DNA of 64,000 nt from Candidatus Norongarragalina meridionalis (GCA_902384935.1 CABMDO010000013.1:4370-68369), one strand, 5' to 3'. Shown: positions 3,542-54,576, numbered from the stretch's first letter. The notes: generated from the sequence alone by a model not told the origin. A program made the numbers and translations.

Positions 3542-3614
3542 AGCCCCGTCGTCTAGCGGTCAAGGACGAAGGCCTTTGAAGCCTTTTACGGCAGTTCGAA
3601 TCTGCCCGGGGCTA
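3542..3614 (+). tRNA. tRNA-Gln (anticodon UUG), no encoded CCA
   Basis: Hand-folded: acceptor AGCCCCG/CGGGGCT, D arm GTCT-AGCGGTCAA-GGAC, anticodon arm AAGGC-CTTTGAA-GCCTT (anticodon TTG), 4-nt variable, T arm GGCAG-TTCGAAT-CTGCC, discriminator A. Confidence 0.75.
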
Positions 3615-6119: not shown

Positions 6120-6156
6120 TTCAACGTTCAACTCCAACTGCGGGGTAATTCGGAGG

Positions 6157-6232
6157 GCGCAGAGCGAGATTTGAACTCGCGTCGCAAGCTCCACAGGCTC
6201 GAATCCTAGACCAGGCTAGACGATCTGCGCCA
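6157..6232 (-). tRNA. tRNA-His (anticodon GUG) with genomically encoded G-1, no encoded CCA
   Basis: Hand-folded on the minus strand: G-1 + acceptor GCGCAGA/TCTGCGC + discriminator C73 pairing with G-1. Anticodon arm CGAGC-CTGTGGA-GCTTG (anticodon GTG), T arm GCGAG-TTCAAAT-CTCGC. The D arm is weak (two G-U pairs). Confidence 0.7.
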
Positions 6233-6308
6233 CAGAAGTCGGAACGGTTATACGCGAGGCTAGTTACGGGAAGGCACACGTCAATGAAGTAAACCGCCTT
6301 TCACATTC

Positions 6309-6320
6309 CTCACGCAAGGT
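6309..6320 (+). promoter_or_regulatory. TATA box (ggtattatattt) for pheT, leaderless configuration
   Basis: AT-rich element about 30 nt upstream of the pheT ATG. Confidence 0.4.
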
Positions 6321-6350
6321 ATTATATTTCGGAATTTGGTATTTAAACGC

Positions 6351-7973
6351 ATGGTTTCGGTTTCCGTCTCAAAATCGTGGCTTCTGTCGCGATTGAAGGG
6401 AATCACAGAATCGCAGCTTCTCGACAAGCTGCCCGACGTGAAGGCGACGGTCGAGGCTGGCAACGGCGATGAAATGACGCTCGAGGTTACGCCCGACCGC
6501 CCCGACCTGCTCTGCCGCGAGGGAATATTGCGTTCGCTGAAGGGTTTGTTCGAGAAGGAGACGGGTTTGCCTCTGCTTAAAATCGAAAAAGGCAAGGCGG
6601 TCATGAAAGTGGACGCCTCGGTGAAGGCGGTACGCCCTTTCATATGCTGCGCTTTTGCGCGCGGACTGAAAATAACCGCCGGCGACGTCGGGGAAATCAT
6701 GCAGGTGCAGGAGAAGCTTACGTTGACGCACGGACGCAGGCGCAAGAAAGTCGCGATAGGCGTCCACGATGCGGCGAAGACGAAGCCGCCCTTTGAATAC
6801 CGCGCTGTCGCCCCCGACTCTGTCAAGTTCGTTCCACTCAGCTGGGCTCGAGAGGCGACTCCGGGGCAGATTCTATCGCAGCACGACAAGGGCAAGGAAT
6901 ATGCGTTCGCTCTTGCGGACAAAAAACGCTGCCCCGTAATCACGGACGCGCACGGCGTGGTTTCGTTCCCGCCCATCATCAACGCCGCCCGCACTACGGT
7001 GACGGAAAAGACGACGGATTTGTTCCTCGACGTGACGGGCACGGATTACGACGCCTGCAATGCGGCGCTGAACATCCTGTGCCAGAATTTCTCGGACGAC
7101 GGGGCGCGTATAGAGAGCGTCTCAATTGCCGGCAAGGAAACGCCGGAAACCGCGCCAGAAACAATGCTTCTTTCAGTTGACGGCACTAACAAGACTCTGG
7201 GCACTTCGTTCACCGCTTCGGAGATGGCACGCTACCTGGCGAGGCAACGCATCGCGGCGGTTGAAGCGAAGAAAGGCGTCCTGAAATGCTCGATTCCGCG
7301 ATATCGCGCCGACTTCCTGCACGAGGCGGACTTAATCGAGGAAGTGGCGCTCGGCTACGGTTACAATTCATTCGCTCCGAAGAAACCGTCAGTTTTCACG
7401 TTAGGTTCGCTCAGCAAGAAAACGCTGTTCGAGGAAAAGGCGCGCGACCTGCTAGTGGGCGCGGGCTACGCCGAGCTGATGACGTACGTGCTCTCGAACG
7501 AGGAGAAGGCGTTCAAATCCCTCGCGGAAAAAAATCTCGTTCGCATCAAGAACCCCGTAAGCAAGGAATATTCCGCATTGCGTTCCACAATCATGCCCTC
7601 GCTTCTCGAAGTGCTGTCGGAAAATACGCATTCATCGTATCCTCAGCGCGTCTTCGAAGCGGGCGAGGTTGTTGAAAAGGATTCTTCGCGCGACACGAAA
7701 TCCGCGGAGCACACGCATCTTTGCGCTTTGAACGCGCACGCCGACGCGTCGCTAAGCGAGTCCGCTTCGGTTCTGCGCAAGGCGTGCGTCAGCCTTTTCG
7801 GAAAGGCGCCCTCTTTCGAGCAAGCCTCCGCGCCGCAGTTCCTGGCAGGAAGGCAGGCGCGCGTGATGCTTGACGGAAAAATGATAGGCGTAGTCGGCGA
7901 GCTGCACCCGCAGGTTCTGCTCAACTGGGGAATCACGGTCCCGTGCTCGGGATTCGAAGTGAGGCTTTTCTAG
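6351..7973 (+). CDS. pheT: Phenylalanyl-tRNA synthetase beta subunit (archaeal type)
   Basis: About 540 aa with B3/4-like and B5 domain signatures. C-terminal class II-like catalytic fold typical of the archaeal PheT architecture. ATG at 6351 lies about 30 nt downstream of ttatattt (leaderless). The track start 6336 is a TTG. Confidence 0.8.
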   Translation: MVSVSVSKSWLLSRLKGITESQLLDKLPDVKATVEAGNGDEMTLEVTPDRPDLLCREGILRSLKGLFEKETGLPLLKIEKGKAVMKVDASVKAVRPFICCAFARGLKITAGDVGEIMQVQEKLTLTHGRRRKKVAIGVHDAAKTKPPFEYRAVAPDSVKFVPLSWAREATPGQILSQHDKGKEYAFALADKKRCPVITDAHGVVSFPPIINAARTTVTEKTTDLFLDVTGTDYDACNAALNILCQNFSDDGARIESVSIAGKETPETAPETMLLSVDGTNKTLGTSFTASEMARYLARQRIAAVEAKKGVLKCSIPRYRADFLHEADLIEEVALGYGYNSFAPKKPSVFTLGSLSKKTLFEEKARDLLVGAGYAELMTYVLSNEEKAFKSLAEKNLVRIKNPVSKEYSALRSTIMPSLLEVLSENTHSSYPQRVFEAGEVVEKDSSRDTKSAEHTHLCALNAHADASLSESASVLRKACVSLFGKAPSFEQASAPQFLAGRQARVMLDGKMIGVVGELHPQVLLNWGITVPCSGFEVRLF

Positions 7974-7976
7974 AAC

Positions 7977-8567
7977 ATGTTTGAACAGCTGATTCCCGCA
8001 TTCATAATGCTCTTCGTGGTAATGGACCCCTTCTCCAGCATCGGGCCGTTCCTCGCGCTCACAAAGGGATTCAAGGATGAGCAGCGCGTGAAGTCCGCGA
8101 ACGAGGCCGCCGTAGTCGCGGCGTTGCTCATGGTTCCGTTCATATTCTTCGGCATGAACGTGCTCTCGATGCTCGGCATCTCGCTCGCTTCCTTCAAGAT
8201 AGGCGGCGGCATCGTGCTCGCTCTCCTGGGTTTGCAAATCGTGCTCGGTTTCTCGCTTTCGAAGGACGAGAAAAAGCCCACGGGAACCGCGGTGGCAATC
8301 ATCATCGCCACGCCCATGCTCACCGGCCCCGGAGTGCTCGTTACCGTGATTTTCCTGAAGGCGCAATACGGGCTTCCGGTTGCGATTCTTGCGTCGTTAA
8401 TCTCGCTCTCGCTGAGCTGGCTGCTCATCCGCAACGCCCACCGCATCCAGCAGAAAGTCGGAAGCAACGTCATCGAGATTTTCTCGAAAATCATGGGGCT
8501 GCTGCTCGTGGCGCTGGCGATCGAATTCATAAGCAGCGGGATAATGATATTCGCGAAGGGCGGCTAG
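7977..8567 (+). CDS. MarC-family (UPF0056) integral membrane protein
   Basis: 196 aa with about 6 TM segments. Conserved MarC-like N-terminus (FIMLFVVMDPFSSIGPFLALT). Confidence 0.65.
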   Translation: MFEQLIPAFIMLFVVMDPFSSIGPFLALTKGFKDEQRVKSANEAAVVAALLMVPFIFFGMNVLSMLGISLASFKIGGGIVLALLGLQIVLGFSLSKDEKKPTGTAVAIIIATPMLTGPGVLVTVIFLKAQYGLPVAILASLISLSLSWLLIRNAHRIQQKVGSNVIEIFSKIMGLLLVALAIEFISSGIMIFAKGG

Positions 8568-8573
8568 CGTTTT

Positions 8574-9245
8574 TCAGCGCAGGATTTTCTTAAGATCGCT
8601 TACGTCCTTCAGCACGTAGTCGGGCTTCGGGCCTTTTTGCTTGCGAACTTCCCCGTATTTCGCGTGCGCGGTTTTCATGCCCGCCCGCGCCGCGCCTTTC
8701 ACGTCGCGTTCAAGTGAATCGCCTACGAAAAGTATTTCCGACGGCGAAACGCCCTTCATTTTTTTCAGGGCGGCGGCGAACGGAAGGGCGCTGGGCTTGC
8801 GCTTGCGCGTGTCCTCGAACGAGACGACGAAGTCGAACGCACGCTCGAGATTCATCGCGGCGAGCCGCATCCACGCCTGCATGCGCGGCGCGTCCGTTAC
8901 GATTCCGAGTTTGTAGCCGCGGGCGCGCAGGGCAGCCAGCGTGTCCGCCACGTTCGGATACGGGTACAGGAACCCCTCTTTTACTTTCTTGTACGCCACC
9001 ACTCCCTTGGCAAGAATCGCGTAGTCGACGCGCCCGGTTTCCTGCTTCAGGAATTTCTGGAATATCCGCTGGTCCTCGAGCCCGTGCCTGTAATAGAGCG
9101 CGAACATCCTGCGCACCGCTTTTTCGCGCGGCGTCCGCAATCCCGCGGAGCGCATGCCGTTGACGGCGGCGTCCACGCACGCGCGCTTCATCGCCATGAA
9201 GTCGATGAGCGTGTTGTCCAAGTCGAAGAGCACGGCGCGAATCAT
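8574..9245 (-). CDS. HAD-superfamily hydrolase (phosphatase)
   Basis: Motif [10 protein letters not shown] (DxDxT). Motif [12 protein letters not shown]. Size 223 aa. Confidence 0.8.
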
Positions 9246-9329
9246 GAGCGCAGAACTGCGGCGATTTTATTAACCGTTTGCTTCCTTCGCTCCGTTTGCT
9301 TTAAAAACCGCGTTGCATTAATCGCTGCG

Positions 9330-10196
9330 GTGGGTATCTTGAGGCGTCTGCTGTTGCTGATATTGGTAGCTGGCTTCGTCTCCAGCCTCACGGAGAACGA
9401 GCAGCAGGTTCTTTTCGTCAACGCTACGCAGAGGGCACTCTCGCAGCATTTCGGCGCGCCGATAGATTTCCGCTCGGTATCGTACAACGCGTATTCTAAC
9501 CAGTACGATGCCGACTACGCGGACCTCATGTACACGTTCCACATCCTTCCGGCGCGGCAGTCCATCGGCGCTTACTCCGTAAGCAAGAAAATCAACGGCA
9601 TAGAGCTTTGGATGCGCATGCGCGGCTTGTGGAATCCGCAGCCGTCAAAAACCGCGTACGATGCGGGATTCTATTGCCCGGTTTCCAACTACACTGAATT
9701 CGGACTAGAATACCATCTGGAGCAGGGAAACCTTACGGACGTCGAGGAGTTCGGCAATATTCTGACGAACGCGTGCCTCGAATTCATTTTGTCGCTGACG
9801 CAGTCGCCCTCGCCCACGCCATCCCCGACTCCTACGCCTACCCCTACGGCGGTGCCATCTCCTTCGCCTTCCCCGTCGCCAATAGCGTCGCCGACAATAA
9901 TTCCGACGCCGACTTCAACAGTTGTTCCTTCGCCGTCCCCGTCGCCTTCAGCGGCGCCGGTTGTCAGCCAGGAGCAGCCGCAGACGCGCTGGAAGCTCAT
10001 AGTGCCCTTTGATTTGCAGACAGCCGCGCTCGTCGCCGTAGTGCTTCTGCTTCCGCTCGCGTACGTCTTCATGAAGCGCAACTTCCACCACGACGCGCAG
10101 AGGAAATCCACCGCTCTCGGTTATTACCGCAACATGGCGGGCTTCCTCTCGCAGGACGGGACGAAGCGCAAGAAATTCGTGCAGAAAAAGCTTTGA
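9330..10196 (+). CDS. Secreted protein with Pro/Ser/Thr repeat linker and C-terminal TM anchor (first gene of the HydA-like operon)
   Basis: GTG start at 9330 gives a signal peptide [23 protein letters not shown] repeat [27 protein letters not shown]-terminal TM helix. The track start 9084 overlaps the HAD gene on the other strand and is rejected. Confidence 0.55.
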
Positions 10197-10197
10197 G

Positions 10198-10725
10198 GTG
10201 AGGGATTCGATGGGAAAATTCGCCGCACTTGTAATGTTGATTGCGTTCGCTCTGTCCGTTTCGGCGTGGTGCAATACCACCGGCGACCAAGCCGGGTTAG
10301 TCGCGGGATGCTGCACCGACCAGTGGGGCACCAAGTGCGATTCCTGCTCGACGGATTTGAACGGGCATGCCGTTGTCCTGAAATACAACTGCCCGAACGG
10401 CGCGTCGAGCGAGTGCTTCGCGTACAAGGTGGCGTGCAGCGTGGACAAGACGTGCACGGACGGAGCATGCGCGCCGATTTACGGGGCGACTCCGACAGCC
10501 GCGCCGACGTATTCGGTGCCGACCGCGGCACCGACGTACTCCTCCGCGACGACACAGCCGACGCAGTACCCGACATACCCGACAGCCAGCTCTACGCCGA
10601 TGCCCGCGCAGCCGATTTCAACGGACATGTTCATGCTCGGCGGCGTGCTCGTGATCGCGCTTCTCGCGGTGATATGGTTCGTCGCGCGCAAACCTGCGCA
10701 GGCGAAGAAGAACAGGAAGGGGTGA
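10198..10725 (+). CDS. Small Cys-rich secreted protein with PT-rich linker and C-terminal TM anchor
   Basis: Signal peptide (MGKFAALVMLIAFALSVSA). About 10 Cys in a roughly 70-aa domain (CNTTGDQAGLVAGCCTDQWGTKCDSCS...CPNGASSEC...CSVDKTCTDGAC). APTYS repeats. TM helix and KKNRKG tail. Confidence 0.55.
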   Translation: MRDSMGKFAALVMLIAFALSVSAWCNTTGDQAGLVAGCCTDQWGTKCDSCSTDLNGHAVVLKYNCPNGASSECFAYKVACSVDKTCTDGACAPIYGATPTAAPTYSVPTAAPTYSSATTQPTQYPTYPTASSTPMPAQPISTDMFMLGGVLVIALLAVIWFVARKPAQAKKNRKG

Positions 10726-12318: not shown

Positions 12319-12858
12319 ATGGGTTTTGCATTCGAATTTCCGTTTTCAGGAGCCGACGAGAACGTCCGCGTCCTTTTTTATTCGGCGGTAGCGTTCTTCG
12401 TCCCGTTTTTCCTTGACGGCCCGCAACTTCTCGTAGGCACGATAGTGAACGCGATGCTCGTCACGTGCGCGTTGGACGTGCGCGGCAACCGCGTGCTTCC
12501 CGTGATTTTCCTTCCGTCGATAGCGGCTGTTTCGCGCGGACTGATTTTCGGCCCGTTCACGCCTTTCCTGGCGGTGATGATGCCGGTGATATGGATTGGC
12601 AACGCCACGCTCGTTTTCGGAATACGGAGACTCGTGAGCCGCAACGTAAACGCAGTCTCCTCCGTCGCGGTCGCCGCATGCGCCAAATCCATCGTGCTCT
12701 TCGCGGCAGCCTATGCATTGGTTGCGACCGCTGCGCTTCCCGCACTGTTCCTGACGGCGATGGGTGCGGTGCAGCTCGCAACTGCCGTGATGGGCGGCGG
12801 GGTTGCGTTGTTTCTCCGCAACGCTTTAATGCGTCCGCGCCGTAACGCTTCTGGATGA
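12319..12858 (+). CDS. Hypothetical polytopic membrane protein (about 5-6 TM; ECF-S-component-like size)
   Basis: 179 aa, very hydrophobic. Its stop overlaps the start of the downstream radical SAM gene (ATGA). Confidence 0.5.
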   Translation: MGFAFEFPFSGADENVRVLFYSAVAFFVPFFLDGPQLLVGTIVNAMLVTCALDVRGNRVLPVIFLPSIAAVSRGLIFGPFTPFLAVMMPVIWIGNATLVFGIRRLVSRNVNAVSSVAVAACAKSIVLFAAAYALVATAALPALFLTAMGAVQLATAVMGGGVALFLRNALMRPRRNASG

Positions 12859-13550
12859 ACCTGCACTTCGCAAGCATGGTTGACGATGATCCGTCTGCTT
12901 ATCCTCGGAAGCGCTCTTCCGTGATATTCCTGTGCGGATGCCCGCTGAAATGCGGCTTCTGCTGCCGCCCCGAGCTTCTCGACACCTCGTCGTGCGGCGA
13001 GGAGCCTACGTCGTTTTTCAGCCGCCATTTCGCCGAAACGAAGCCCGAGGCAGTCGTCTTCGCCGGAGGCGAGCCGCTGATGCAGGGGAACGCGCTCCAC
13101 GAGCTATGCATGATTCTGGCGAAGCAGCAGCGCGTTTCCGTAAAGATAGACACGTGCGGCTACTATCCCGATGCGCTCGCGGATTTGCTTCCGTTCCTCT
13201 CGTACGTCTCGCTCGACATAAAGACGCGACTGAAGCAGAATGACTACGCCGAGATGACGGGTTTCGAAGGCAACCCCGAGCTCCTGCTCAGCAATGTCCT
13301 GCGCTCGCTCGCTTTTCTCGAGAAGCTCGGCAGCCACGTGTTCAAGGAGTTCCGCTTCACGATAGTCGAAGGAAAGAACGACGACGCGGAAATCGCCGAG
13401 AGCGTGGCGAAATACGTCGCTCCTTACTGCGACCGCTTCCTCGTCGTGGCGGATGACCGGAACAATGCGCTTCCCATAGCGCAAGCGTGCCGCAAGCACG
13501 TGCAGAACGTTGCGTTGCGCACCCCGCAGGCAGAGGAAAAGGTCTTCTGA
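12855..13550 (+). CDS. Small radical SAM protein, glycyl-radical-enzyme activase-like (PflA/NrdG/QueE-like)
   Basis: CxxxCxxC cluster (CGCPLKCGFCC) about 25 aa from the N-terminus. GGEPL motif. 231 aa, typical of NrdG/QueE-size activases. Confidence 0.6.
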   Translation: MNLHFASMVDDDPSAYPRKRSSVIFLCGCPLKCGFCCRPELLDTSSCGEEPTSFFSRHFAETKPEAVVFAGGEPLMQGNALHELCMILAKQQRVSVKIDTCGYYPDALADLLPFLSYVSLDIKTRLKQNDYAEMTGFEGNPELLLSNVLRSLAFLEKLGSHVFKEFRFTIVEGKNDDAEIAESVAKYVAPYCDRFLVVADDRNNALPIAQACRKHVQNVALRTPQAEEKVF

Positions 13551-13584
13551 AGCGTTTTTAACATTTTCCGTGCAGTATTAGTTA

Positions 13585-21744: not shown

Positions 21745-21780
21745 TTTTTATATACCGCCGCCTCTCGTTACTATAGGTGG
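21745..21780 (+). promoter_or_regulatory. Promoter + RBS of secreted paralog A (TATA tttttatata, SD aggtgg)
   Basis: TATA 21745-21754, SD 21775-21780, ATG 21787. The arrangement is nearly identical upstream of paralog B. Confidence 0.45.
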
Positions 21781-21786
21781 TTTGAA

Positions 21787-23490
21787 ATGAGGAATTCCGT
21801 TCTGATGATAGTCGCGCTTTTGTGCGCCCTCCCCGCTTTTTCGTTCGCGGCGAATTCGGTTACGACAATTTCTAATGTTATCGACATCTCGTACACCGGC
21901 ACCAAGCCGCTGACCGCGAATTATCCGGGGCTCGAGACCCTGACTGCGGGAATCACCGATTCCGAAAACTCCCTGATTCTTTTCCAGAAGTTTACGCTGA
22001 GCAGCAGCGGCAGTCCTACGGACGCTTCGGGCACCGTAACCCTGACTGGCCACTATCTCGACATCGACGTCAAAACCATCGATATGCGCCAGCTGCAGAA
22101 CAAGCTCGGGAACAGCGATCCAAAGGAAAAAATCACGCCGAAATCCTTCTCGATAAGCGGCGTAAAGGCGGTCGCTTTCATAAACAACGGCTTCAGCGGC
22201 TATGCCACGCGCGACGAACGCGATTCGCCTAGGGAAGCGGTCTTTGCAGTAGTAGCGAAAGCGGGAACCGATTTCGGAACGCGCAAACGCGAAGTCAAGT
22301 TCGCTTCCGGCACCGATTATTACGATTATGTTTCGAGGGGGCTTCCGACGATCGAGGTTATCTCGAATACGTGCCCCCCGTCTTCGGGAAAAAGCACCAA
22401 CGACCCCGTAAAGAGCTGCAAATCAGGCAGCGCATCAACCGCCTTCGCCCTTAGCACGGACACGATAAGCTCAGAAAACACGAATCTCAAGGTCACGGTT
22501 ACGGGACTTCGCTCCGCGGAATACGTATCGTATCCCAAAGGCTCAACCGTGGTGATTCGCCTGAAGTACGAAGGCGGCGGCTTCGGAAACTGCGATTCCA
22601 ACCTCTTCATGTCGGCGTTGGCAAGCGGTGGGGCTGCGTCGGCGTGCGCGCTGCAGATTGCCGGCGGTTCCGGTAGCAACATAGCGATTCCTGACGGATT
22701 TTCGGGAAAAATCATGGCGGGCGGCAAGTGCACCGCTACCGCGGTAACGAGCCTGACGAACCTCAAGACCGCGATAAACAATTACGCGGAATCGAACGCA
22801 ATAGACGAAAGCGCGGTAGTCGCTTCGAAATTCGCCACTGACCTAAATTCCGAGTTCAAGCTGCACTCGCACGACTACGAGGACACGAAACCCGTTTCTA
22901 CGAACACCGAAGCATCCCCTATAGTCGGCCCCTGCAGTTCCAAGCGCGTCTCGCTGACGCCGCAAACCTACGTGGTAATCACCAAGAACATGCCCGCGCC
23001 GGTGAAGGGAGCGGGCGTTCCTTCGTATAGCGTCGAGTTTACGGCAGCGAACCTGAAGAGCTGGCTCAAGAAGCCCGGCACATACTCCATAGAAGTCGAC
23101 GTTGACGGAAAGTATCTGGGCTACAAGCCCTTTTACGTTTCCATAGCGGATCCTGCCGGCGCGGTTTCCGCCGCGCTTTCCAGCGCGAAGGTATCCGGAC
23201 AGCTTGCGGTTTACTACCTTTCGCCAATAGGCAAGACGTACGCCACCGCCGCTTACGGGAACGTAAAGCTGGACAAGGCGGCTTCGTCGAACGACGGCAA
23301 GTACGACCTTTTCGTCGGAGGCAAGCAGATGCCGCCGTACCCGAGCCCCTTGCTCGCCGGGCTGGTTTCCGTAGGGTCCGTCGTTCAGGCCGCGGTGCAG
23401 AGCGACAACTGCAATTCGCCGCTGCTCGCCTGCAAATGCAACGGAAAGCCCGGCTGCGCCGACGTGCTGATCGCGCCCAAGACGGCATGA
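21787..23490 (+). CDS. Large secreted protein, paralog A (candidate S-layer/surface structural protein)
   Basis: Signal peptide MRNSVLMIVALLCALPAFSFA. 567 aa, Ser/Thr/Gly-rich. C-terminal Cys motif CNSPLLACKCNGKPGCADVLIAPKTA shared with paralog B. Confidence 0.55.
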   Translation: MRNSVLMIVALLCALPAFSFAANSVTTISNVIDISYTGTKPLTANYPGLETLTAGITDSENSLILFQKFTLSSSGSPTDASGTVTLTGHYLDIDVKTIDMRQLQNKLGNSDPKEKITPKSFSISGVKAVAFINNGFSGYATRDERDSPREAVFAVVAKAGTDFGTRKREVKFASGTDYYDYVSRGLPTIEVISNTCPPSSGKSTNDPVKSCKSGSASTAFALSTDTISSENTNLKVTVTGLRSAEYVSYPKGSTVVIRLKYEGGGFGNCDSNLFMSALASGGAASACALQIAGGSGSNIAIPDGFSGKIMAGGKCTATAVTSLTNLKTAINNYAESNAIDESAVVASKFATDLNSEFKLHSHDYEDTKPVSTNTEASPIVGPCSSKRVSLTPQTYVVITKNMPAPVKGAGVPSYSVEFTAANLKSWLKKPGTYSIEVDVDGKYLGYKPFYVSIADPAGAVSAALSSAKVSGQLAVYYLSPIGKTYATAAYGNVKLDKAASSNDGKYDLFVGGKQMPPYPSPLLAGLVSVGSVVQAAVQSDNCNSPLLACKCNGKPGCADVLIAPKTA

Positions 23491-23504
23491 AAGGTTTCCG
23501 CCCC

Positions 23505-23540
23505 TTTTTATATTTCCGCGCCCTAGTGCCTAATAGGTGG
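23505..23540 (+). promoter_or_regulatory. Promoter + RBS of secreted paralog B (TATA tttttatattt, SD aggtgg)
   Basis: TATA 23505-23515, SD 23535-23540, ATG 23545. ATGAGG start context identical to paralog A. Confidence 0.45.
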
Positions 23541-23544
23541 TAAA

Positions 23545-25650
23545 ATGAGGAGGATTCTCGCTTTCGTTCTCGTCGCGGTTATGCTCGTTCCGATAGTCGC
23601 CGCGGTGCAGGCTCCTTTCAAGAACATATTCGTGTTCGACGGCAGCAGCCAGCGGGTGCAGAAGCTGTCGGACGTAACCGGCGCACCGTCGTCGGGGCCG
23701 ACCGAATCCTCCCATTCCGTGAAGTTCGCGACTCCCGTTGACATGACGGTCGCGTACATGGAAAAGGGCAAGTGCTATTACGCGAAATTCACGTCGGTCT
23801 ATTCAATCGATTTCACCCGCGAGGTGGAGTTTTACCTGCAGGAAAATCCCGTCTACGATCCGTACGGCGTCGCCCAGTCGCTTTTCGACGACCTGAGTTC
23901 AGCGTCGGGCGCGCTGCTCGACTATTCCGGAGCGAAAATGACCGTATTGACGCGTAACAAGCAGCAGTTCATACCCTACGAGAACCCGTTCTGCGAGAGG
24001 CCCGCGTTCTATTATTCCTATACGATAGATTCCCTGAAGTACCTTAAGGTCCTCACCCCGAACGTCCTGCTGAGCATGTGCCCGGGAAACTCGTGCTACT
24101 TCAATTCCAGCGTTCCCGCGACACTGAAGCTGCAGCGCGATTCCAGCGGCGACGCAACGCCGACCCCGTCGCCAAGTTCCGGCGGGCAGGCGCTCCAGCC
24201 GATTGACATGACTGGCGTCTGGCAGATAACCATCGACGGCGCGGGCGGCGCGGCGCTCATCCAGCAGCTTTACACCGCGTCCGAGGACGCGTCCCACCGC
24301 CGCACGTTCACTTACGCCATAGATTCCGCCAAGTTCACCGCGACGATAAACACGCTTACCAAGCAGACCGCGCTCGAGAACTATCTCAAATACAGTACGG
24401 CGCCACCCGAGACGCCCTCGGGCACGCAGAACCCCGTAAAGCAAACGCTCGTGCAGACGATTACGGCAACGGGCTTCTCGTATTCCGGCGGAATGCCGAG
24501 CGTGATGTGGGACGTCCAGTCGTCTTTAATGTTTAGCCACGTCGTGGACATCTCGTTCACCGTAGGCGGGAAGCAGAAGCTCGTGCGCGGCGTAACGATG
24601 ATGGAGTTTCCCGAGGGTTCGGTTGCAGCCGCCGCGGTGCAGAAGGCAATAGACGGACTCAAGTCGGGAACAGATGACAAGCGCTCCGCATCATTCCCAT
24701 CCACGGCTCTGACGGTGTATTCCGAGCCGGCTTCGTCGTCCTGCGTCACGCCTTCGGATTCGCCGCACGTGGAAATCGCCATGACGGTCACGACTTCGGG
24801 CGAATCGGTCTCGGTAACCGCGAGCGACCTGCCGAACAAGGACGCCTCTGGAAAAACAATCAGCGTGCCGGTCGAGGTTTCGTTCGAACGCTCGCCTGGC
24901 GCCCTCACGAACGACGACATGGTAGGCATTCTCGCAGTCATAGGCACCGCTGACATCAATATAGACATCGGCAAGCCGCAGACGAAATCCGTGTATTCCC
25001 GCGCAGAAGCCGAGCTTTACGATGGCGTCGGGCTCAGGGCGACGAACATAAAGCGCTCGCCGAAGATATCCGCGTTCATGCCGTCGGTTCGCGAATCCCG
25101 CGGCACCTCCTACGTGGACGGCGGCGTGCTCGGGCAGTGCAAACTCCCCGTCAAGCGCGAGTCGCTCGTAATGTCCGCCGTCACGAAATCCTCGTCGGTG
25201 TCGCTCCGCTTCGCTTCGGGCATCGTCAAGGACTTCTTCGCGCTTCCGGGACCGTACAAGGTGCGCGTCATCGCGGCGGGGCAGCAGATAGGCGAGCAGA
25301 CGATTTACCTTAATTCGCCGGACCCGACCGAGGCGGTTGCCGACGCGGTCAGGGCTGTCGGGCTGCCTGTGGGCACGAAACTGCCCGTGCAGTACCTGGC
25401 GAAGGGCGCAAGCACCGCGATATCGTACGGCTCGCTTAAATCTCTCCCACTGACGCGTTCCGGCGACAACTACGCCATAGGCGCGGCGGGATTGACGCAG
25501 AAGGTTCCCCTAGGCGAGGTGTTCGCGCAGGCGGCGAACATGGTGGCGCTCGCGGAGCCAGTGTGCTATACGGGATTCGTCGCGCCTTCCTGCACGTGCA
25601 AGGGCAACGACGCGTGCACGCCCGTATGGGTGCAGCCGAAGACGTCCTGA
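23545..25650 (+). CDS. Large secreted protein, paralog B (candidate S-layer/surface structural protein)
   Basis: Signal peptide [23 protein letters not shown]. 701 aa. C-terminal [28 protein letters not shown]. Confidence 0.55.
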
Positions 25651-25663
25651 GGTTTTTGAAAAC

Positions 25664-26185
25664 ATGGACCTTTCATCGCACATACGCAACGTGCCCGACT
25701 TCCCGAAAAAGGGAATCGGATTCAAGGACATCACCACGTTGCTGAAGGACAGGGCGGCGTTCCGCGACGCGATAAAGCAGCTTTCCGCGCCCTACCGCGA
25801 CAAGAACGTTTCCGTAGTGGTGGGCATCGAAAGCCGCGGATTCATTCTCGGCGCCGCCGTGGCGCACGAGCTCGGCGTCGGGTTCGTCCCGCTCCGCAAG
25901 CCCGGCAAGCTGCCGTACAAGAAAATCAAGCAGGAATACGCGCTGGAATACGGAACCGATGCGATTGAAATTCATGAGGACGCGATTGCGCCGGGAGAAC
26001 GCGTTCTGCTCGTGGATGATTTGCTCGCAACCGGCGGAACCGCGAAGGCGGCGTGCGATCTGATCGAGAAGCTCGGCGGGAAAATAGTCGCGCTCGCGTT
26101 CCTCATCGAGCTAACGTTCCTGAAGGGACGCGAAAAACTCAAGGGGCGTGACGTCATGGCGCTGATAAAGTACGATTCGGAGTGA
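25664..26185 (+). CDS. apt: Adenine phosphoribosyltransferase
   Basis: PRTase motif [13 protein letters not shown]. 173 aa with an APRT-like N-terminus. Confidence 0.85.
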
Positions 26186-26188
26186 CGC

Positions 26189-26938
26189 CTACCTTTTCTT
26201 TCCGATGAACAGCGCCCTTATTGTTCTTACCAGTGCTGGCTTCATGAACCACCGGGCAGCGTCTTCCGTTAGTCCGTAGCGGTCCAGTGTCGGGAACCCC
26301 TTGTGCAACTCTCCGGTTCCGACGTCGTACACCGCATTCGCTATCGTGAGTTTCCCCTTTTTCATCGCTTCCTTTACGTATGCCACCTTCATCAGATTCG
26401 CGGTTTGAAGCAGCATATTCGCCTCGACTATCATCCTGTGGCGATCTTCTTCACTCACTTCAAGATTGTTTTCGCGTATCGCCCTGTCGACGAATTTTTT
26501 CGCGGGCAGCGCCTTCTTGAGATGTTTTTTGATTTCCTTTTCAACCGTGGCGAGATGGTCGAGCGCCTTTATTCCGCCGCAGTTGTAATGCCCGACGACC
26601 CACACGAGCCCTTCCCTATCCTCCTCGCCTGGCTTCGTCTTAAGCAGATGCCTTATGAAATACGCCGCATTCGCCGAAGTGCCGTGGTCGTGACGGTCTA
26701 TGATGTTTCCCGCGTTCTGAGTTATCGTGAATATCTCCCCCAGATGCATTCCCCCGGATTTTACGATGTGCATCCTGGAGTCCGCGCATTCGATTATCGC
26801 ACTGTGCGGTTCTTGTCCGTTAGCCATCCTTGCGAGTTCGCCGGGTGCCCTGAGATGCACCTTTTCGACCCATTTCTTGTTTCCTTCAAAAACCCGTTCG
26901 GCCATTTGCCAGGGAGCTTTCCTCATAATCATCACCAA
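26189..26938 (-). CDS. Beta-class carbonic anhydrase
   Basis: CADSR (CxDxR) and HYNCGG (HxxCG) zinc-ligand motifs. The start codon is uncertain among the N-terminal Met residues. Confidence 0.7.
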   Translation of the reverse strand: MVMIMRKAPWQMAERVFEGNKKWVEKVHLRAPGELARMANGQEPHSAIIECADSRMHIVKSGGMHLGEIFTITQNAGNIIDRHDHGTSANAAYFIRHLLKTKPGEEDREGLVWVVGHYNCGGIKALDHLATVEKEIKKHLKKALPAKKFVDRAIRENNLEVSEEDRHRMIVEANMLLQTANLMKVAYVKEAMKKGKLTIANAVYDVGTGELHKGFPTLDRYGLTEDAARWFMKPALVRTIRALFIGKKR

Positions 26939-30084: not shown

Positions 30085-30654
30085 TTAAACGTGACGCTTA
30101 GACGCGGCGGAGAGCACGTCGGACTTCGTGATTATCCCCGCGATTTTCCCGCGTTTCGTGACGAGCACGGCCTTTTCATGCATGAGAAGCGCGACAACTG
30201 CCTGCAGCGGCACCGCCTCGTCCACCTGCGGGAACGGCGGCGCCATTATCGCTGCCACTGTTTCGGAAGAGAGGTCCGCGCCCTTTTCCACCCGCGCAAG
30301 AACGTCCTCCTCGCTCAGGCTTCCTACGGCGCGCTCTCCCTCGAGCACCGGAAGCTGTGAAACGCCCTTTTTTCCCATGAGCGAAACCGCCTTTGATGCC
30401 TTCTCGTGCGGCGCGACGACGCACAGCCGCCTGCTCATCGCGTCCGACGCCTTCAAACCCGTGGCATGCTCCTTCTCGTCGAGCACGTCCAGCAGCCGCT
30501 TCACGCGCGAATACGACGCGTCGCTTGTTCCCGCCTCGAGCTTCGCGACCAGGGACTGACTCACTCCCGCCTCCTTCGCAAGCTCAGACTGCGTCATGCC
30601 CAGCACCGCGCGCCGCCTTCGTATCGCCGCAGTTTCCGCGTCCATATATTCCAA
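30085..30654 (-). CDS. HTH (XRE-type) + CBS-pair transcriptional regulator
   Basis: N-terminal HTH LGMTQSELAKEAGVSQSLVAKLE, followed by two CBS-like segments. Confidence 0.65.
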   Translation of the reverse strand: MEYMDAETAAIRRRRAVLGMTQSELAKEAGVSQSLVAKLEAGTSDASYSRVKRLLDVLDEKEHATGLKASDAMSRRLCVVAPHEKASKAVSLMGKKGVSQLPVLEGERAVGSLSEEDVLARVEKGADLSSETVAAIMAPPFPQVDEAVPLQAVVALLMHEKAVLVTKRGKIAGIITKSDVLSAASKRHV

Positions 30655-31625
30655 TCATAATAATTACGACAGAAAAATATTTATACCTTTGTAACGTGTT
30701 TAATCTATGTTTGCTCCTAATATCGGCAAAGAGTACATCGAGCCTGCTGAGCATAGCGTTTGTAAGAGCGACTGCCAAGATTTCATTCGTGACAAGTTCG
30801 GCTTGATTTCGCAGCGCGAGATGGCGCGCAGGCTAGGACTTGGAAAAACTACGGTAAACCGTTGGGCTGAAGAAATAGGTTGCAAGTTCGTTAAAAACTC
30901 TGTCGACGATGCATTCTTCGATTCCTGGTCGGAAGAATCCGCCTACGTTTTCGGTTTCATTATTTCTGATGGAAATGTTTGTTGGAATCCCCGCAAGTCG
31001 TACTGGACGCTCACGATAACCGCTTCGGAAAAGGATGTTTCCCACCTAGAAAAACTGCGTTCGTTGCTGGACTCCACAAAGCCGCTTCTTTACTCCCTGG
31101 AAACCAAGTCCTATCGTTTGATGGCGACTAACAAACGTCTATGCAAAAAACTTATGCATTTGGGCGTCTTGCCCAGAAAGTCGTTGACGGTAAGATTCCC
31201 GAAAATTCCAAAAGCATTCCTTAAGGATTTTCTGCGGGGCGTGATAGACGGAGACGGGAATGTCCGTTACGTGAAAAGAAAACGGAGCCCTTATTTCGAG
31301 ATAACGATAGCTTCGGGTTCCAAAGAATTCTGCGAGGGACTTATTGCCGCCATAAAAAGAAATTATGGAATACCTGCAAATGTTCGTAGGGCGCACGGAC
31401 ACACCTACGTAGTTCAGTATTGCTGTTCCCGCGGCGAAAAACTTGCGGAAATAATTTATTCTAACGCGACTGTATTTCTCGAAAGAAAGTACGTCGCTTT
31501 TGATGAAGCAAAGAAAAAGAGGTGTAAGCATGGCTGAAAAAAAGTTTTTCACGTCTGAGTCAGTCACCGAAGGTCACCCGGACAAAATTCCCGAATGATT
31601 TATTCGTTCGAGGATGTCTAAAATT
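30655..31625 (+). mobile_element. AT-rich island carrying a free-standing LAGLIDADG homing endonuclease gene and the disrupted 5' end of metK
   Basis: Marked drop in GC relative to the flanks. Contains the HE ORF and a 36-nt insertion in metK flanked by AAAATT direct repeats. Confidence 0.5.
30707..31537 (+). CDS. Double-motif LAGLIDADG homing endonuclease with N-terminal HTH
   Basis: Motif 1 YVFGFIISDGNV, motif 2 FLRGVIDGDGNV. N-terminal HTH (REMARRLGLGKTTVNRWAEE). AT-rich codon usage unlike its neighbours. The stop overlaps the metK ATG. Confidence 0.75.
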   Translation: MFAPNIGKEYIEPAEHSVCKSDCQDFIRDKFGLISQREMARRLGLGKTTVNRWAEEIGCKFVKNSVDDAFFDSWSEESAYVFGFIISDGNVCWNPRKSYWTLTITASEKDVSHLEKLRSLLDSTKPLLYSLETKSYRLMATNKRLCKKLMHLGVLPRKSLTVRFPKIPKAFLKDFLRGVIDGDGNVRYVKRKRSPYFEITIASGSKEFCEGLIAAIKRNYGIPANVRRAHGHTYVVQYCCSRGEKLAEIIYSNATVFLERKYVAFDEAKKKRCKHG

Positions 31626-32723
31626 TGTGACCAGGTGAGCGACGCGATACTTGATGCGATGCTGGCGAAGGACCCTGACGCGCGCGTCGCGGTGGAATGC
31701 ATGACCACCACGGGCTCGCTGATGATGGCGGGCGAAGTCACCACCAACTGTTACGTGGATATCCCGCACATCGCGCGCGAAACCTTGCGCGACATAGGCT
31801 ACACCGATCCGGAGTTCGGGCTCGACTGCAACGACTGCGGCGTCTGGACGAGCATCCACGAGCAGTCCCGCAACATCGCCGTAGGCGTCGACTCTTCGGC
31901 GAAGAAGGAACAGGGTGCGGGGGACCAGGGCATGATGTTCGGGTTCGCGTGCAACGAAACCAAGGAGCTGATGCCGCTTCCCATATCGCTCGCGCACAAG
32001 CTGACGCACCGCCTGGCGGAGGTGCGCAAGAAGAAAATCCTGGATTGGGTGCGGCCCGACGGAAAGTCGCAGGTTACCGTTGAATACGAAAATGGAAAGC
32101 CGACGCGCGTCGACGCGATAGTAATCGCGGTTCATCATAATCCTTCCGTGTCGCGCGAGAAAATAGTCGCCGACGTGATGGAGCACGTCATAAAGCCGGT
32201 TTGCGGCAATCTCGTCGACGGAAACACGAAATACTTCATCAATGCAACCGGGGTATTCGCAGTTGGCGGGCCCGAGGCGGACACGGGAGTGACGGGGCGC
32301 AAGATAATCGTGGATACTTATGGGGGAATGGGCAGGCACGGCGGAGGATGCTTCAGCGGCAAGGATCCGAGCAAAGTCGATCGCTCGGCTGCGTACGCGG
32401 CGCGCTACATCGCGAAGAACATAGTCGCGGCGGGATTGGCTGAAAAGTGCGAGGTGCAGCTTTCGTACAGCATAGGCGTCGCGGAGCCCGTGAGCGTGCG
32501 CGTGGAATGCTTCGGCACCAACAAGGTTTCCGAAGACAAGCTCTCGGAACTCATACGCAGGCACTTCCCGCTCAAGCCGGCGGACATAATCAGCCAACTG
32601 AAGCTCAAGCGGCCGATTTACCGGAAAACCGCGGCGTACGGGCACTTCGGACGCGAGGATCCCGACTTCACGTGGGAGAAAACCGACAAGGCGGAAGCGC
32701 TCAGGAAGGAAGCCGGGGTTTAG
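31530..32723 (+). CDS. metK: S-adenosylmethionine synthetase, bacterial MetK type, interrupted by an in-frame TGA at 31596-31598 (36-nt insertion); the main ORF restarts at 31614
   Basis: N-terminal exon-like piece [20 protein letters not shown] (31530-31589) matches the MetK N-terminus. After the insertion, [13 protein letters not shown]...[12 protein letters not shown]...[34 protein letters not shown] continues in the same frame. Removing 31590-31625 restores a contiguous MetK. Confidence 0.7.
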
Positions 32724-32758
32724 CGATAGTTTTTAAGCAAGCCGCGTTTTTTTTGTTT

Positions 32759-34381
32759 ATGCGGCTTCAGGTTTTTCTAGCGTTCGCACTTCTGGCGCCA
32801 TTACTGTACGGCGCGGATCTCGAGCCGAAGATGACGGGTTCCGCGCATTTCGGCGTCTCGCTTTCCTGGGTCATGCACGCTTCGGAAGGTTTCCGCGGAA
32901 CCGCGCGCTTCTCGACGTTCGCGTTTTCCGAGACGCCCTACCAGAACGCGCAGTTCCGCATCCCGCAGCAATATTCCGAGGAGACCGACTCCTTCGGGAA
33001 CAAGCGCATCGCCTTTTCGTGGAATCCGGAACCCGGCAATCCGCAGAAATTCGAGATGTTCGCGGATGTTTCCGTCGACTATTCGCAGGAACTGGAGCGC
33101 ATCGCGGAGCAGAATCCCGCGTACCTGCAGCAGAGCGAGTTCGTGATTCTGGACGGCGAGGCGGCGTCCCAGGCGCTGGAAATCGTAGGCGACGCGCCGA
33201 CGCGCTTCGAGAAGGCGGTGCGGCTCGCCGACTGGGTTTACAACAACGTCGAGTACGACGTGGCGTACTGGGACCGGCAGGAGAATTCCAGCACGGTGCT
33301 GAAGATACGGCGCGGCGTGTGCGACGAGAAGAGCCACCTGCTCATGGCGTTCCTGCGCAGCGTGGGCATACCCTCGCGCATGGCAGCGGGTTTCGTCTAT
33401 TCCGGCAAGTCGTGGGGTCCGCACGCGTGGGTGGAGGCGGACTTGGGCGACGGATTCTGGACGCCGATAGACGCAACGTTCAACGAGTTCCGCGTCATAG
33501 ACGCAACGCACCTGCGCTTCGCCGTAGGACGCGACCAGGGCGATATAGCGGAGGAGCTTACCGAGGGGCTGCTGCTCCAGAAACCCGCGCCTTCGTTCGA
33601 CGTGGAATCGCAATCCAATTTCAACAGCCTCGCCTATTCGCTGAAGTTCTCGACGGTTCCGAAGCGCGTAGGCCCCGGTTCTTCCGAGAAAGTGGCGGTT
33701 GAAATCCAGAGCACGTCCGCATTCCCGCAGGCGGTGCCCGTTTCGCTGGCGGCGCCGCAATCTCCTGCGGAACTGGCGGTGCGCGTCACCGACGCGGCAT
33801 CCCGGCTCGTATACCTTCCGCCGAACGGCGACGCGAAGGAGGAGTGGAATCTGGTTTTCCCGACCGCGCTGCAGCCCAGTTACGTCTACAATTTCACGCT
33901 CGAGGCGTCAACGATGGGTTCGCGCTTATACGCAGTTGTGGAAGGAAGGCGCGACGCCCCGGTTTCCTACTCGCAGGAGGTTTCCATCGAAAAGCTCGAA
34001 TCCGAACTCAAGGACGGAATGTTCGTGCTCAGCGCGGTGATTCGCAACCGCGGAAACGTGCAGGCGAACCCCAACGTAATATGCGTGCTCGGCGACGTGT
34101 CGCAGAGCAGCGTGGTTCCGCTCACGCCGGGAGAGGAGCGCGCCGTGCAATTCGCATTTCCCGCGCCGAACGCCACCAGCGTTTCGGGCAAGGTTCGGGT
34201 TGTTTCGGGAACGCAGGTGACGGAACAGCCGTTCGTTTCCTCCATCACGCAGGAATCGGTTATCTACGAGCGCCCGACGAACGACGAGCGCCCCGTCGTA
34301 GTCGCGGTGCTCGCCATAATAGTCGTATTGCTCACGCTATTTTTCCTGAAGAAGCTGCGGCTGCCTTATCGGCCTTTATAA
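32759..34381 (+). CDS. Membrane-anchored transglutaminase-like cysteine protease domain protein
   Basis: Signal peptide MRLQVFLAFALLAPLLYGA. Transglutaminase-like core GVCDEKSHLLMAFLRSVGIPSR...HAWVEADL...WTPIDAT (Cys/His/Asp triad). C-terminal TM helix and basic tail. The track extension to 32447 is rejected. Confidence 0.65.
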   Translation: MRLQVFLAFALLAPLLYGADLEPKMTGSAHFGVSLSWVMHASEGFRGTARFSTFAFSETPYQNAQFRIPQQYSEETDSFGNKRIAFSWNPEPGNPQKFEMFADVSVDYSQELERIAEQNPAYLQQSEFVILDGEAASQALEIVGDAPTRFEKAVRLADWVYNNVEYDVAYWDRQENSSTVLKIRRGVCDEKSHLLMAFLRSVGIPSRMAAGFVYSGKSWGPHAWVEADLGDGFWTPIDATFNEFRVIDATHLRFAVGRDQGDIAEELTEGLLLQKPAPSFDVESQSNFNSLAYSLKFSTVPKRVGPGSSEKVAVEIQSTSAFPQAVPVSLAAPQSPAELAVRVTDAASRLVYLPPNGDAKEEWNLVFPTALQPSYVYNFTLEASTMGSRLYAVVEGRRDAPVSYSQEVSIEKLESELKDGMFVLSAVIRNRGNVQANPNVICVLGDVSQSSVVPLTPGEERAVQFAFPAPNATSVSGKVRVVSGTQVTEQPFVSSITQESVIYERPTNDERPVVVAVLAIIVVLLTLFFLKKLRLPYRPL

Positions 34382-52000: not shown

Positions 52001-52486
52001 ATGAAAAAGCGCGGACAAGCGTTTGAGACGATGATGCTCGTCATTTCCGTTATTGTGGCGGTTGCCATACTCGGCGTCCTGCTCGGCTTCATCAGCCGCA
52101 TCGGGCCCGGCATCGGCGGCGACGCGCTCACCACGATGCAGACGCAGCTCAAGAGCGTCCAGTCGCGCGGTTTCGGCTCCTCCAACGTAGAGAAAGCCAC
52201 CTTCAAGGAGGGCTCGATACGCGTCGGCGAACTCGTGGTTGATTTGCCGGTATCCGCGAACGACGTGAAGTTCTCCGCGGTTGACGGCGGAATCTGCGGC
52301 TCCTCCGACACCGACCCGCTGAAGTGCGAGGAGAAGAAAATCACCATAAACAAGCAAATCGTCGGCTACATAACGACGTGCAAGGGCGAATCAGGACCGT
52401 ACGTCATCGTCATAGGTTCCGAGAACCAGAAGACCGAAGTGACGACGAAGTGCGACGAGTGCGTCGACAGCAACGGCAGCTGCTAG
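52001..52486 (+). CDS. Pilin-like protein 1 (class III / type IV prepilin-like signal peptide)
   Basis: MKKRG|QAFETMMLVISVIVAVAILGVLLGF: short basic N-region, G-Q junction, then a hydrophobic helix (Methanococcus EppA-type pilin signature). Cys-rich C-terminus. Confidence 0.55.
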   Translation: MKKRGQAFETMMLVISVIVAVAILGVLLGFISRIGPGIGGDALTTMQTQLKSVQSRGFGSSNVEKATFKEGSIRVGELVVDLPVSANDVKFSAVDGGICGSSDTDPLKCEEKKITINKQIVGYITTCKGESGPYVIVIGSENQKTEVTTKCDECVDSNGSC

Positions 52487-54575: not shown

Positions 54576-54576
54576 T

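Follow-up and report, generated by a model that had tools for sequence, protein, structure and literature searches.

Two adjacent genes between purE and apt in Candidatus Norongarragalina meridionalis encode exported, anchorless proteins with a shared C-terminal domain: candidate surface structure subunits

A stretch of 64,000 nucleotides from Candidatus Norongarragalina meridionalis (GCA_902384935.1, CABMDO010000013.1:4370-68369), referred to here as the window, carries at positions 21,745 to 25,650 two adjacent genes for exported proteins of 567 and 701 amino acids (aa), W_567 and W_701, for which 'surface structure subunit' appears to be the best reading, a role in a surface layer (S-layer) specifically being neither shown nor excluded by sequence. 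The two genes share a putative regulatory cassette, a similar style of predicted signal peptide and a C-terminal domain of about 160 aa, and they do not appear to be whole-gene duplicates. We tentatively view their products as bulk, unglycosylated, rapidly diversifying surface-coat proteins, in which the shared C-terminal domain would act as an assembly or attachment module and the variable bodies would face outward; that the two proteins are the S-layer lattice itself seems unlikely. As judged from homology searches the family is previously undescribed, its detectable relatives being limited to three related assemblies, and the kind of locus, a variable surface-protein locus with conserved ends, is a familiar one. 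The organism is known from a genome of the Micrarchaeota (DPANN) obtained from groundwater metagenomes, the source site being an iron-rich, radionuclide-contaminated trench (PMC8561730). The database entries of this organism include both proteins, with no difference in sequence, as 'Uncharacterised protein'.

The two open reading frames (ORFs) had been placed exactly by the original prediction, and they and their associated features are as follows.

21745..21754, plus strand: TATA box of gene 1, TTTTTATATA, 33-42 nucleotides 5' of the ATG
21773..21781, plus strand: ATAGGTGGT, Shine-Dalgarno-like (GGTGG), 5 nucleotides ahead of the gene 1 ATG
21787..23490, plus strand: gene 1, 'A-type' exported protein of 567 aa, family not recognised
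21787..21849, plus strand: predicted signal peptide of gene 1, aa 1-21, MRNSVLMIVALLCALPAFSFA followed by A, with the S-F-A/A site read from the sequence
23002..23487, plus strand: shared C-terminal domain of gene 1, aa ~406-567
23410..23487, plus strand: four-Cys cluster and invariant Pro-Lys tail of gene 1, C542, C549-x-C551-x5-C557 ... PKTA-COOH
23505..23514, plus strand: TATA box of gene 2, TTTTTATATT, one of the two TTTTTATAT sites in the window
23533..23541, plus strand: ATAGGTGGT, Shine-Dalgarno-like, 3 nucleotides ahead of the gene 2 ATG
23545..25650, plus strand: gene 2, 'C-type' exported protein of 701 aa, family not recognised, with orthologues P0003 and P0004
23545..23613, plus strand: predicted signal peptide of gene 2, aa 1 to ~23, cleaved at VAA/V or VQA/P, both small-x-small
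25174..25647, plus strand: shared C-terminal domain of gene 2, aa ~544-701
25564..25647, plus strand: four-Cys cluster and invariant Pro-Lys tail of gene 2, C674, C683-x-C685-x5-C691 ... PKTS-COOH
25653..25657, plus strand: T5 run, candidate archaeal terminator, directly 3' of the gene 2 stop

Homology searches with W_567 returned the protein itself and nothing else, and those with W_701 returned two orthologues, P0003 (54% identity) and P0004 (43% identity). On the P0004 contig (L001) and the P0003 contigs (L002-L004), purL-purQ-purB-purE is followed by an array of large genes and then by apt, as in the window. The L001 array comprises three genes without a Pfam match (688, 859 and 722 aa) and the L002 array two (707 and 702 aa); each array thus holds two or three family genes, all of them between purE and apt, and the arrays can be described as A-C in the window, A-B-C in L001, and A/B-chimera-C in L002. 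The body of W_567 scores 103 against L001_688 in a Smith-Waterman alignment (shuffles 49.9 +/- 7.2, z 7.4), with agreeing Cys spacings of 18 and 28/29 residues, and it is, on this alignment, orthologous by position to the first gene of L001, though very diverged. Synteny breaks just 3' of apt, where the window has a carbonic-anhydrase-like gene on the minus strand (26189-26938), as does L003 (a weak Pro_CA match), and where L001 has an unrelated 288-aa ORF (12718-13584, plus strand).

The two proteins of the window had been put forward as tandem paralogues, and this holds for their last ~155 aa but not for their bodies. In a BLASTP comparison only aa 413-567 of W_567 and aa 551-701 of W_701 align (28% identity, E 7e-9), and the N-terminal ~400 aa of the former and ~540 aa of the latter are no more similar than shuffled controls (z 0.5); the pairwise alignment that had been proposed as a check therefore reveals two unrelated bodies, with no similarity beyond the termini, one of the outcomes that had been named in advance as refuting the prediction. 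The Cys-containing C-terminal motif fared better, as the expression C-x-C-x-G-x3-C-x2-V-x-[IV]-x-PKT[AS] is exact in both proteins, matches these two ORFs only in a six-frame translation of the window, and forms part of a real homologous domain of ~160 aa. A hidden Markov model (HMM) of this domain recognises it at the C-terminus of all seven family proteins. Invariant in the seven-way alignment are P-G, P, L-x-V-x-Y, C-x-C, C and P-K, and a fourth Cys stands 6-9 residues upstream of the C-x-C, except in one paralogue, where it is shifted (as C-x-C). All seven proteins keep the cluster C-x(6-9)-C-x-C-x(4-5)-C, L001_688 having C-P-C-x4-C-H-C.

The genes also resemble each other upstream. In both, TTTTTATAT(A/T) is followed by an 18-nucleotide GC-rich spacer, ATAGGTGGT, 5 or 3 nucleotides, and ATGAGG, so that the TATA boxes, Shine-Dalgarno sequences and ATGAGG starts originally described are all present at their positions. 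They are also unique in the window: the 9-mer TTTTTATAT has two sites in the 64 kb, both of them here (0.16 expected), and the composite TTTTTATATW-N18-ATAGGTGGT matches just these two places even with 2 mismatches (0 expected). The top TATA-consensus scores among the long ORFs of the window likewise belong to these two genes (8/8 and 7/8, at about -40). Since the TATA box lies 33-42 nucleotides from the ATG, the leader would be at most ~12 nucleotides long, and the GGTGG may be either a Shine-Dalgarno site or at the transcription start. After correction of three start codons, a TTTTTATAT(A/T) element, a GGTG(G/A)T element and a signal peptide were found in all seven genes of the three genomes, which bears out the claim that each gene has a promoter of its own with a near-consensus archaeal TATA box. 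The T-run of the gene 2 TATA box may serve as a gene 1 terminator as well. A bacterial-type promoter and terminator scan was set aside, the host being archaeal.

A 19-nucleotide promoter repeat is the only DNA repeat that links genes 1 and 2, no long ones being present, and the pair is therefore not a recent duplication. With a G+C content at third codon positions (GC3) of 0.71 and 0.79 and effective numbers of codons of 41.7 and 39.5, which lie towards the biased end of the window range, both genes have native codon usage, and recent horizontal transfer was rejected. A read-through fusion of the two ORFs was also rejected, as they lie in the same frame but are separated by a TGA and an in-frame TAG. 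Downstream, the ATG of apt (25664-26185) is found 13 nucleotides past the gene 2 stop, and the interval 25651-25663 holds the T5 run and no TATA-like element of its own. The same tight spacing occurs in L001 (11 nucleotides), and apt may be transcribed by read-through from the surface-protein gene or from a promoter inside the 3' end of gene 2.

Export is indicated by the protein sequences themselves. Each has a single hydrophobic stretch, at the N-terminus (aa 1-26 in W_567, aa 1-31 in W_701), and no hydrophobic 19-mer occurs outside the signal peptide in W_567, W_701 or the five homologues. Together with the small-x-small cleavage sites, these segments agree with the Sec-type signal peptides predicted for both proteins, and P0004 and the L002 gene, once extended upstream, have conserved the sequence of the gene 2 signal peptide. 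The contrast drawn with other exported proteins of the window also stands, as neither protein has a transmembrane (TM) anchor, whereas those encoded at 263-1804, 10198-10725, 32447-34381, 48277-50028 and 57844-58401 carry C-terminal hydrophobic anchors. Other means of attachment were considered: a lipoprotein was rejected, there being no lipobox and the A-L-L-C context of Cys13 not being conserved, and no C-terminal sorting signal (PGF-CTERM/archaeosortase, PEP-CTERM or LPXTG) was found, the chains ending 2-3 residues past the invariant PK with no C-terminal hydrophobic segment. The N-termini are of Sec type, with small-x-small sites past the hydrophobic core, and not of class III as in type IV pilins and archaellins. 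The lengths and the Ser/Thr/Gly-rich composition were as anticipated (W_567/W_701: S 12.2/11.3%, A 10.8/9.7%, T 8.1/8.1%, G 8.5/7.3%). The mature proteins have masses of 57 and 72 kDa, isoelectric points (pI) of 8.5 and 6.2, 10 Cys each, 5-15 Met, and a hydrophobic fraction of 48-50% (AVLIMFWPG counted).

A class III-like N-terminus is encountered elsewhere in the window, in the small protein encoded at 52001-52486 (plus strand), whose N-terminus MKKRGQAFETMMLVISVIVAVAILGVLLGF resembles a type IV pilin/archaellin-like signal peptide. No other gene in the window has a codon usage as biased as that of this one (effective number of codons 33.1), which is also preceded by a TTTAAATA box at -41 and by GGGTGG ahead of the ATG. 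A second ORF, 54562-55341 (plus strand), has a basic leader followed by a hydrophobic helix (…AKRAQAAVFDGIMFLLLV…) and is possibly pilin-like; neither protein has a Pfam match.

An unexpected property of the family is the near absence of N-glycosylation sequons. The seven proteins contain 2 N-x-S/T sites (x not P) as opposed to 28.7 expected from residue shuffling, and none of 1000 shuffles yielded fewer than 15; W_567 and W_701 contain 0 and 1, against 5.6 and 3.3 expected. Related patterns occur at normal frequencies (S/T-x-N, 33 against 28.7; D-x-S/T, 50 against 46; Q-x-S/T, 25 against 27; N-S/T, 31 against 30.7; N-x-A/G/V, 38 against 38.5), as do sequons in all other long ORFs of the window (69 observed, 62 expected), and TM-anchored exported proteins of the window are not depleted (for example 6 against 6.5, and 4 against 1.1). 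The depletion is thus directional and specific to the family. The simplest explanation would be that the proteins meet the N-oligosaccharyltransferase and that glycans on them are selected against, and passage by this enzyme would in turn be independent support for export. Two small exported, C-terminally anchored proteins of the window are of a different character: that at 57844-58401 (minus strand) is sequon-enriched (4 against 1.1 expected), and that at 10198-10725 (plus strand) is mucin-like, with a weak sub-threshold MGC-24 match. These suggest that N-glycosylation is in use on other surface proteins. The genome literature on the organism mentions neither AglB nor a PF05123 S-layer protein. 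As a sequence signature the sequon loss is clean; it implies that N-glycosylation is active in the organism and that one class of surface proteins has to avoid it, and if the signature generalises, sequon depletion could be used as a screen for such proteins in other archaeal genomes.

The array evolves far more rapidly than its surroundings. The flanking PurL, PurQ, PurB, PurE and Apt, a metallo-beta-lactamase-fold protein and ribosomal protein S2 have counterparts in L001 or L002 with 87-95% identity to those of the window, whereas the 701-aa C-type orthologues are 43-54% identical and the A-type (567-aa) bodies are barely recognisable. DNA identity of ~82% extends up to the purE stop, is lost across all of gene 1, returns for 90 nucleotides that comprise the gene 2 promoter and signal peptide (23498-23587; 80-83% to the 5' ends of the L001 859-aa and 722-aa genes), and resumes in the 3' half of gene 2. 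W_701 is itself a mosaic, its N-terminal 270 aa being nearest to P0003 and its last 85 aa nearest to P0004; over two internal segments, P0003 is closer to P0004 than either of them is to W_701. The L002_707 protein (707/712 aa; L002 1587-3725) is chimeric: its first ~160 aa match L001_688 (5167-7224) with 60% identity, and the remainder matches aa 288-859 of L001_859 (7311-9890) with 78% identity, the join falling at a Ser-rich 'TGSSxSTQD[IL]I' linker found in both parents. A surface locus that is exposed and that gains diversity through substitutions and through recombination between conserved ends would be expected to show such a pattern. The gap in identity between flanks and array (87-95% against 43-54% or unrecognisable) marks a hot spot of diversifying evolution, which is probably driven by viruses or partner cells.

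Beyond these genomes the searches found no family member. A HMMER profile search of 1.84 billion representative proteins recovered the window pair (P0001 and P0002) and P0004 as true members; P0005, a protein of 1772 aa with HYR_4C repeats, was rejected as compositional (E 5e-5 summed over 12 repeats). With no other true member in so exhaustive a search, the C-terminal domain appears to be confined to this gene array. At E <= 1, Pfam gave a sub-threshold DUF6941 match for W_567 and nothing for W_701, and NCBIfam gave no match for either; Pfam found no significant family among the L001 and L002 paralogues, and phmmer and profile hmmsearch found no meaningful match among PDB chains. In scans of genomes, metagenomes and viral contigs, nothing was added to the family apart from the L001 genome and the L002-L004 contigs. 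An origin as viral or phage structural proteins was rejected, since PHROG gave a lone weak tail-fibre match (E 0.007, 15.9 bits), IMG/VR viral contigs held no relative, and the genes occupy the same purE-apt site in three genomes.

This leads to the question of whether the pair are S-layer proteins in the strict sense. The original prediction of S-layer or surface structure subunits is borne out in part, being favoured by export, the lack of an anchor, the near-consensus promoters, the shared domain and surface-like evolution, and disfavoured by the unrelated bodies, the missing S-layer family match, the near absence of sequons and the atypical pI and Cys content. It has been proposed that S-layer proteins have masses of 40-200 kDa, a pI of 4-6, 40-60% hydrophobic residues and few sulfur-containing residues (10.1101/2021.04.28.441871); by these rules the two proteins are within range in mass and hydrophobic fraction and outside it in pI and sulfur content. 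Several observations weigh against an S-layer or surface-coat role. A near-neutral or basic pI (6.2 and 8.5) and 10 Cys in each mature chain are not what is typical of S-layer proteins, Pfam, NCBIfam and PDB searches found no resemblance to a characterised surface protein, and no anchoring partner has come to light. Moreover, the known S-layer candidates of DPANN archaea are ~1000 aa long and sequon-rich (10.1101/2021.04.28.441871, 10.1101/2023.10.27.564410), and PF05123 S_layer_N proteins occur in other high-GC groundwater Micrarchaeota, which makes it possible that a canonical S-layer gene of this genome may lie outside the window. Structure prediction, proposed at the outset as a check, lends no support either, as no confident fold emerged: AlphaFold2 gave a mean predicted local distance difference test (pLDDT) score of 43.5 for W_701 (4-row alignment) and 28.5 for W_567 (2-row alignment), and a Foldseek search of the low-confidence W_701 model against the PDB returned nothing at E <= 0.001. 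The best Foldseek match (E 1.5e-3) was among generic multi-domain beta-sandwich proteins, the only kind retrieved, and was discarded as uninformative; nor was reliance placed on the beta-hairpin, helix, beta-hairpin arrangement of the C-terminal domain in the low-confidence models of both proteins, or on a few sub-threshold sequence matches to beta-sandwich domains (DUF6941, filamin, PapC_N). For a strict S-layer reading speak the promoter evidence, which together with codon bias is what bears on the presumed abundance of the two proteins, the existence of a Micrarchaeum S-layer protein that likewise has no recognised anchor, and the lack of a BLAST hit for UBA8480. This genome, which gives the GTDB order containing Norongarragalina its name, is in the genome list of the S-layer study and not among its BLAST hits (10.1101/2021.04.28.441871), an absence that could be explained by incompleteness of the metagenome-assembled genome.

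The Micrarchaeum protein in question is SLP_Mh (Micr_00292) of Ca. Micrarchaeum harzensis, whose gene was measured to be among the most expressed of that organism; SLP_Mh is a 101-kDa protein of pI 5.55 with almost no sulfur-containing residues and many N- and O-glycosylation sites, is positive in periodic acid-Schiff (PAS) staining, matches PF05123, TIGR01564 and TIGR01567, and has an anchoring that was stated to be unexplained (10.1101/2021.04.28.441871). The window proteins come from the same phylum, likewise have an N-terminal signal peptide and no recognised membrane anchor, and are probably highly expressed, to judge from the promoter. They differ in their masses of 57 and 72 kDa, pI of 8.5 and 6.2, 10 Cys each, 0 and 1 sequon, and want of a PF05123-type match; PF05123/PF05124, TIGR01564 and TIGR01567 did not match the pair, and the L001 and L002 paralogues are also without a Pfam match. 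Other DPANN candidates, MJ1_0160 of Nanobdella aerobiophila and NEQ300 of Nanoarchaeum equitans, were proposed mainly from expression data and have about 1000 aa, around 15 predicted N-glycosylation sites and confidently predicted immunoglobulin-like folds (10.1101/2023.10.27.564410). Like these, the window family consists of lineage-restricted 'hypothetical' exported proteins without a C-terminal TM helix, but it is nearly sequon-free and has no confident AlphaFold2 fold.

The SlaA/SlaB system of the Sulfolobales offers a parallel for adjacent genes of large, exported, beta-rich proteins that could build one layer, SlaA also being without a TM anchor. SlaB brings a C-terminal TM helix, however, which neither window protein does, and both SlaA and SlaB are heavily N-glycosylated (10.1101/2023.10.27.564410). 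Unlike slaA and slaB, each window gene has its own promoter and the two are paralogues in a common C-terminal domain; the window proteins match no PDB chain, no similarity to SlaA or SlaB was found by phmmer or profile hmmsearch against PDB chains, and a comparison of folds would rest on a low-confidence model and is uninformative. Similar in genetic organisation are variable surface-protein cassettes with conserved ends such as the sap homologues of Campylobacter fetus and the slpA cassette of Clostridioides difficile, which are bacterial and have known cell-wall or lipopolysaccharide (LPS) binding domains. These share with the purE-apt array a conserved terminal region with an attachment domain, a divergent exposed body, several paralogues, and recombination mosaics in a conserved neighbourhood. 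There is no sequence relationship, however, and the array has a promoter for each paralogue and no sign of promoter inversion or silent cassettes.

If the proteins are indeed coat components, a plausible course of events can be outlined. A near-consensus TATA promoter of its own would drive each gene, presumably strongly, giving transcripts with a very short leader, and the encoded proteins would cross the membrane via Sec and lose a cleavable signal peptide. The ~160-aa C-terminal domain would serve them all as a module for assembly or attachment, linking one paralogue with another or with a partner bound to the membrane, and disulfides or a bound metal would lend it stability. The unrelated N-terminal bodies would face outward and diversify by substitution and by recombination at the conserved 5' and 3' ends, in keeping with the observed pattern. 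The near-total loss of N-x-S/T would reflect exposure to the N-glycosylation machinery under conditions where glycans would disrupt packing or assembly, and the two proteins together would form the outer coat of the cell or a major decoration of it. A bolder version, which we regard as distinctly unlikely, is that in a Norongarragalina-related group the outer envelope is a glycan-free protein coat of two or three components, unrelated to known S-layer families, with the paralogues locked by the C-terminal four-Cys/Pro-Lys module and their bodies swapped by recombination. The lock would be formed by disulfides, by metal, or by an isopeptide bond through the invariant Lys. If such a coat exists, the N-x-S/T purge marks a layer that is kept unglycosylated, the opposite of the usual archaeal S-layer glycoprotein, and the purge and the C-terminal module would be the main points of interest.

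The sequon depletion, which is specific to this family, the lack of a membrane anchor and the very fast mosaic evolution, as expected with changing partners, would also suit released soluble factors such as adhesins, toxins or effectors, on which sequons might be avoided as a glycan would block insertion into, or passage across, the envelope of another cell. Counter-selection of sequons has been reported for eukaryotic secretory proteins that cross a further membrane, for example Plasmodium apicoplast proteins. Nevertheless, a conserved C-terminal domain confined to two or three co-located paralogues fits co-assembly better, Pfam and NCBIfam detected no toxin, enzyme or lectin domain, and the Norongarragalinales have been argued to be less host-dependent or possibly free-living (PMC12892359); we consider released factors an unlikely explanation. 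Rather improbable, in our view, are extracellular binding proteins or enzymes with the C-terminal module as a four-Cys metal-binding or redox domain of relevance to iron-rich groundwater. The Cys cluster is present in all seven proteins, the C-P-C-x4-C-H-C of L001_688 looks like a metal site, and the source trench is iron-rich and radionuclide-contaminated (PMC8561730), but no catalytic or known metal-binding family was found even at E <= 10, the bodies change too fast for conserved enzymes, and that each paralogue has a strong promoter to itself suggests bulk use as a structural protein.

The extreme C-terminus, hydrophobic-x-hydrophobic-x-P-K in all paralogues, brings to mind extracellular filaments whose subunits are joined through donor-strand exchange of the C-terminal strand V-x-[IV]-x-P-K or by covalent cross-linking of the invariant Lys. 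In this it is similar to the pilin motif V-x-V-Y-P-K, known from pili that sortases assemble. A transglutaminase-core membrane protein lies 7 kb downstream and is also found in L001 (32447-34381, plus strand, and L001 19242-20864; PF01841, E 5.5e-22), and it could speculatively be a cross-linker of the C-terminal Lys. The whole region is syntenic, however, which makes this neighbour non-specific as evidence, and at 57-89 kDa and with unrelated bodies the subunits would be large by the standard of known donor-strand filaments, and they match no PDB filament protein. The organism already has type IV pilus genes (PMC8561730) in addition to the pilin-like gene at 52001-52486. Filament subunits are in our opinion a very doubtful interpretation. 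The absence of characterised homologues might also raise the suspicion that these are decaying or non-functional ORFs that share elements by chance; this notion is effectively refuted by conservation across genomes, given long intact ORFs at the same locus in three of them, a conserved promoter, signal peptide and C-terminal domain, native codon usage, and a directional sequon depletion that requires selection on the protein.

The surface-coat interpretation is of some consequence, as little is known of the cell surfaces of DPANN archaea, whose major envelope proteins mostly carry the annotation 'hypothetical'. The locus offers concrete candidates for what the Norongarragalinales expose at their surface; it has recently been argued that this lineage depends less on hosts than other DPANN do (PMC12892359).

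The remainder of the window includes a few further genes of note. An exported, C-terminally anchored protein of 583 aa is encoded at 48277-50028 (plus strand), in the highest-GC stretch of the window (65.5%), and matches prenyltransferase/squalene-hopene-cyclase-type alpha-alpha toroids, the alpha-macroglobulin TED domain and DUF4430. The ORF at 30707-31537 is atypical (GC 45.8%, GC3 0.50, effective number of codons 58, as against ~58% GC elsewhere), shares an AT-rich divergent intergenic region with a helix-turn-helix (HTH)/CBS-type gene at 30085-30654 (region 30655-31537), and may be foreign or recently acquired. Three tRNA genes are also present, for Leu-TAG (1928-2012), Gln-TTG (3542-3614) and His-GTG (6155-6230).

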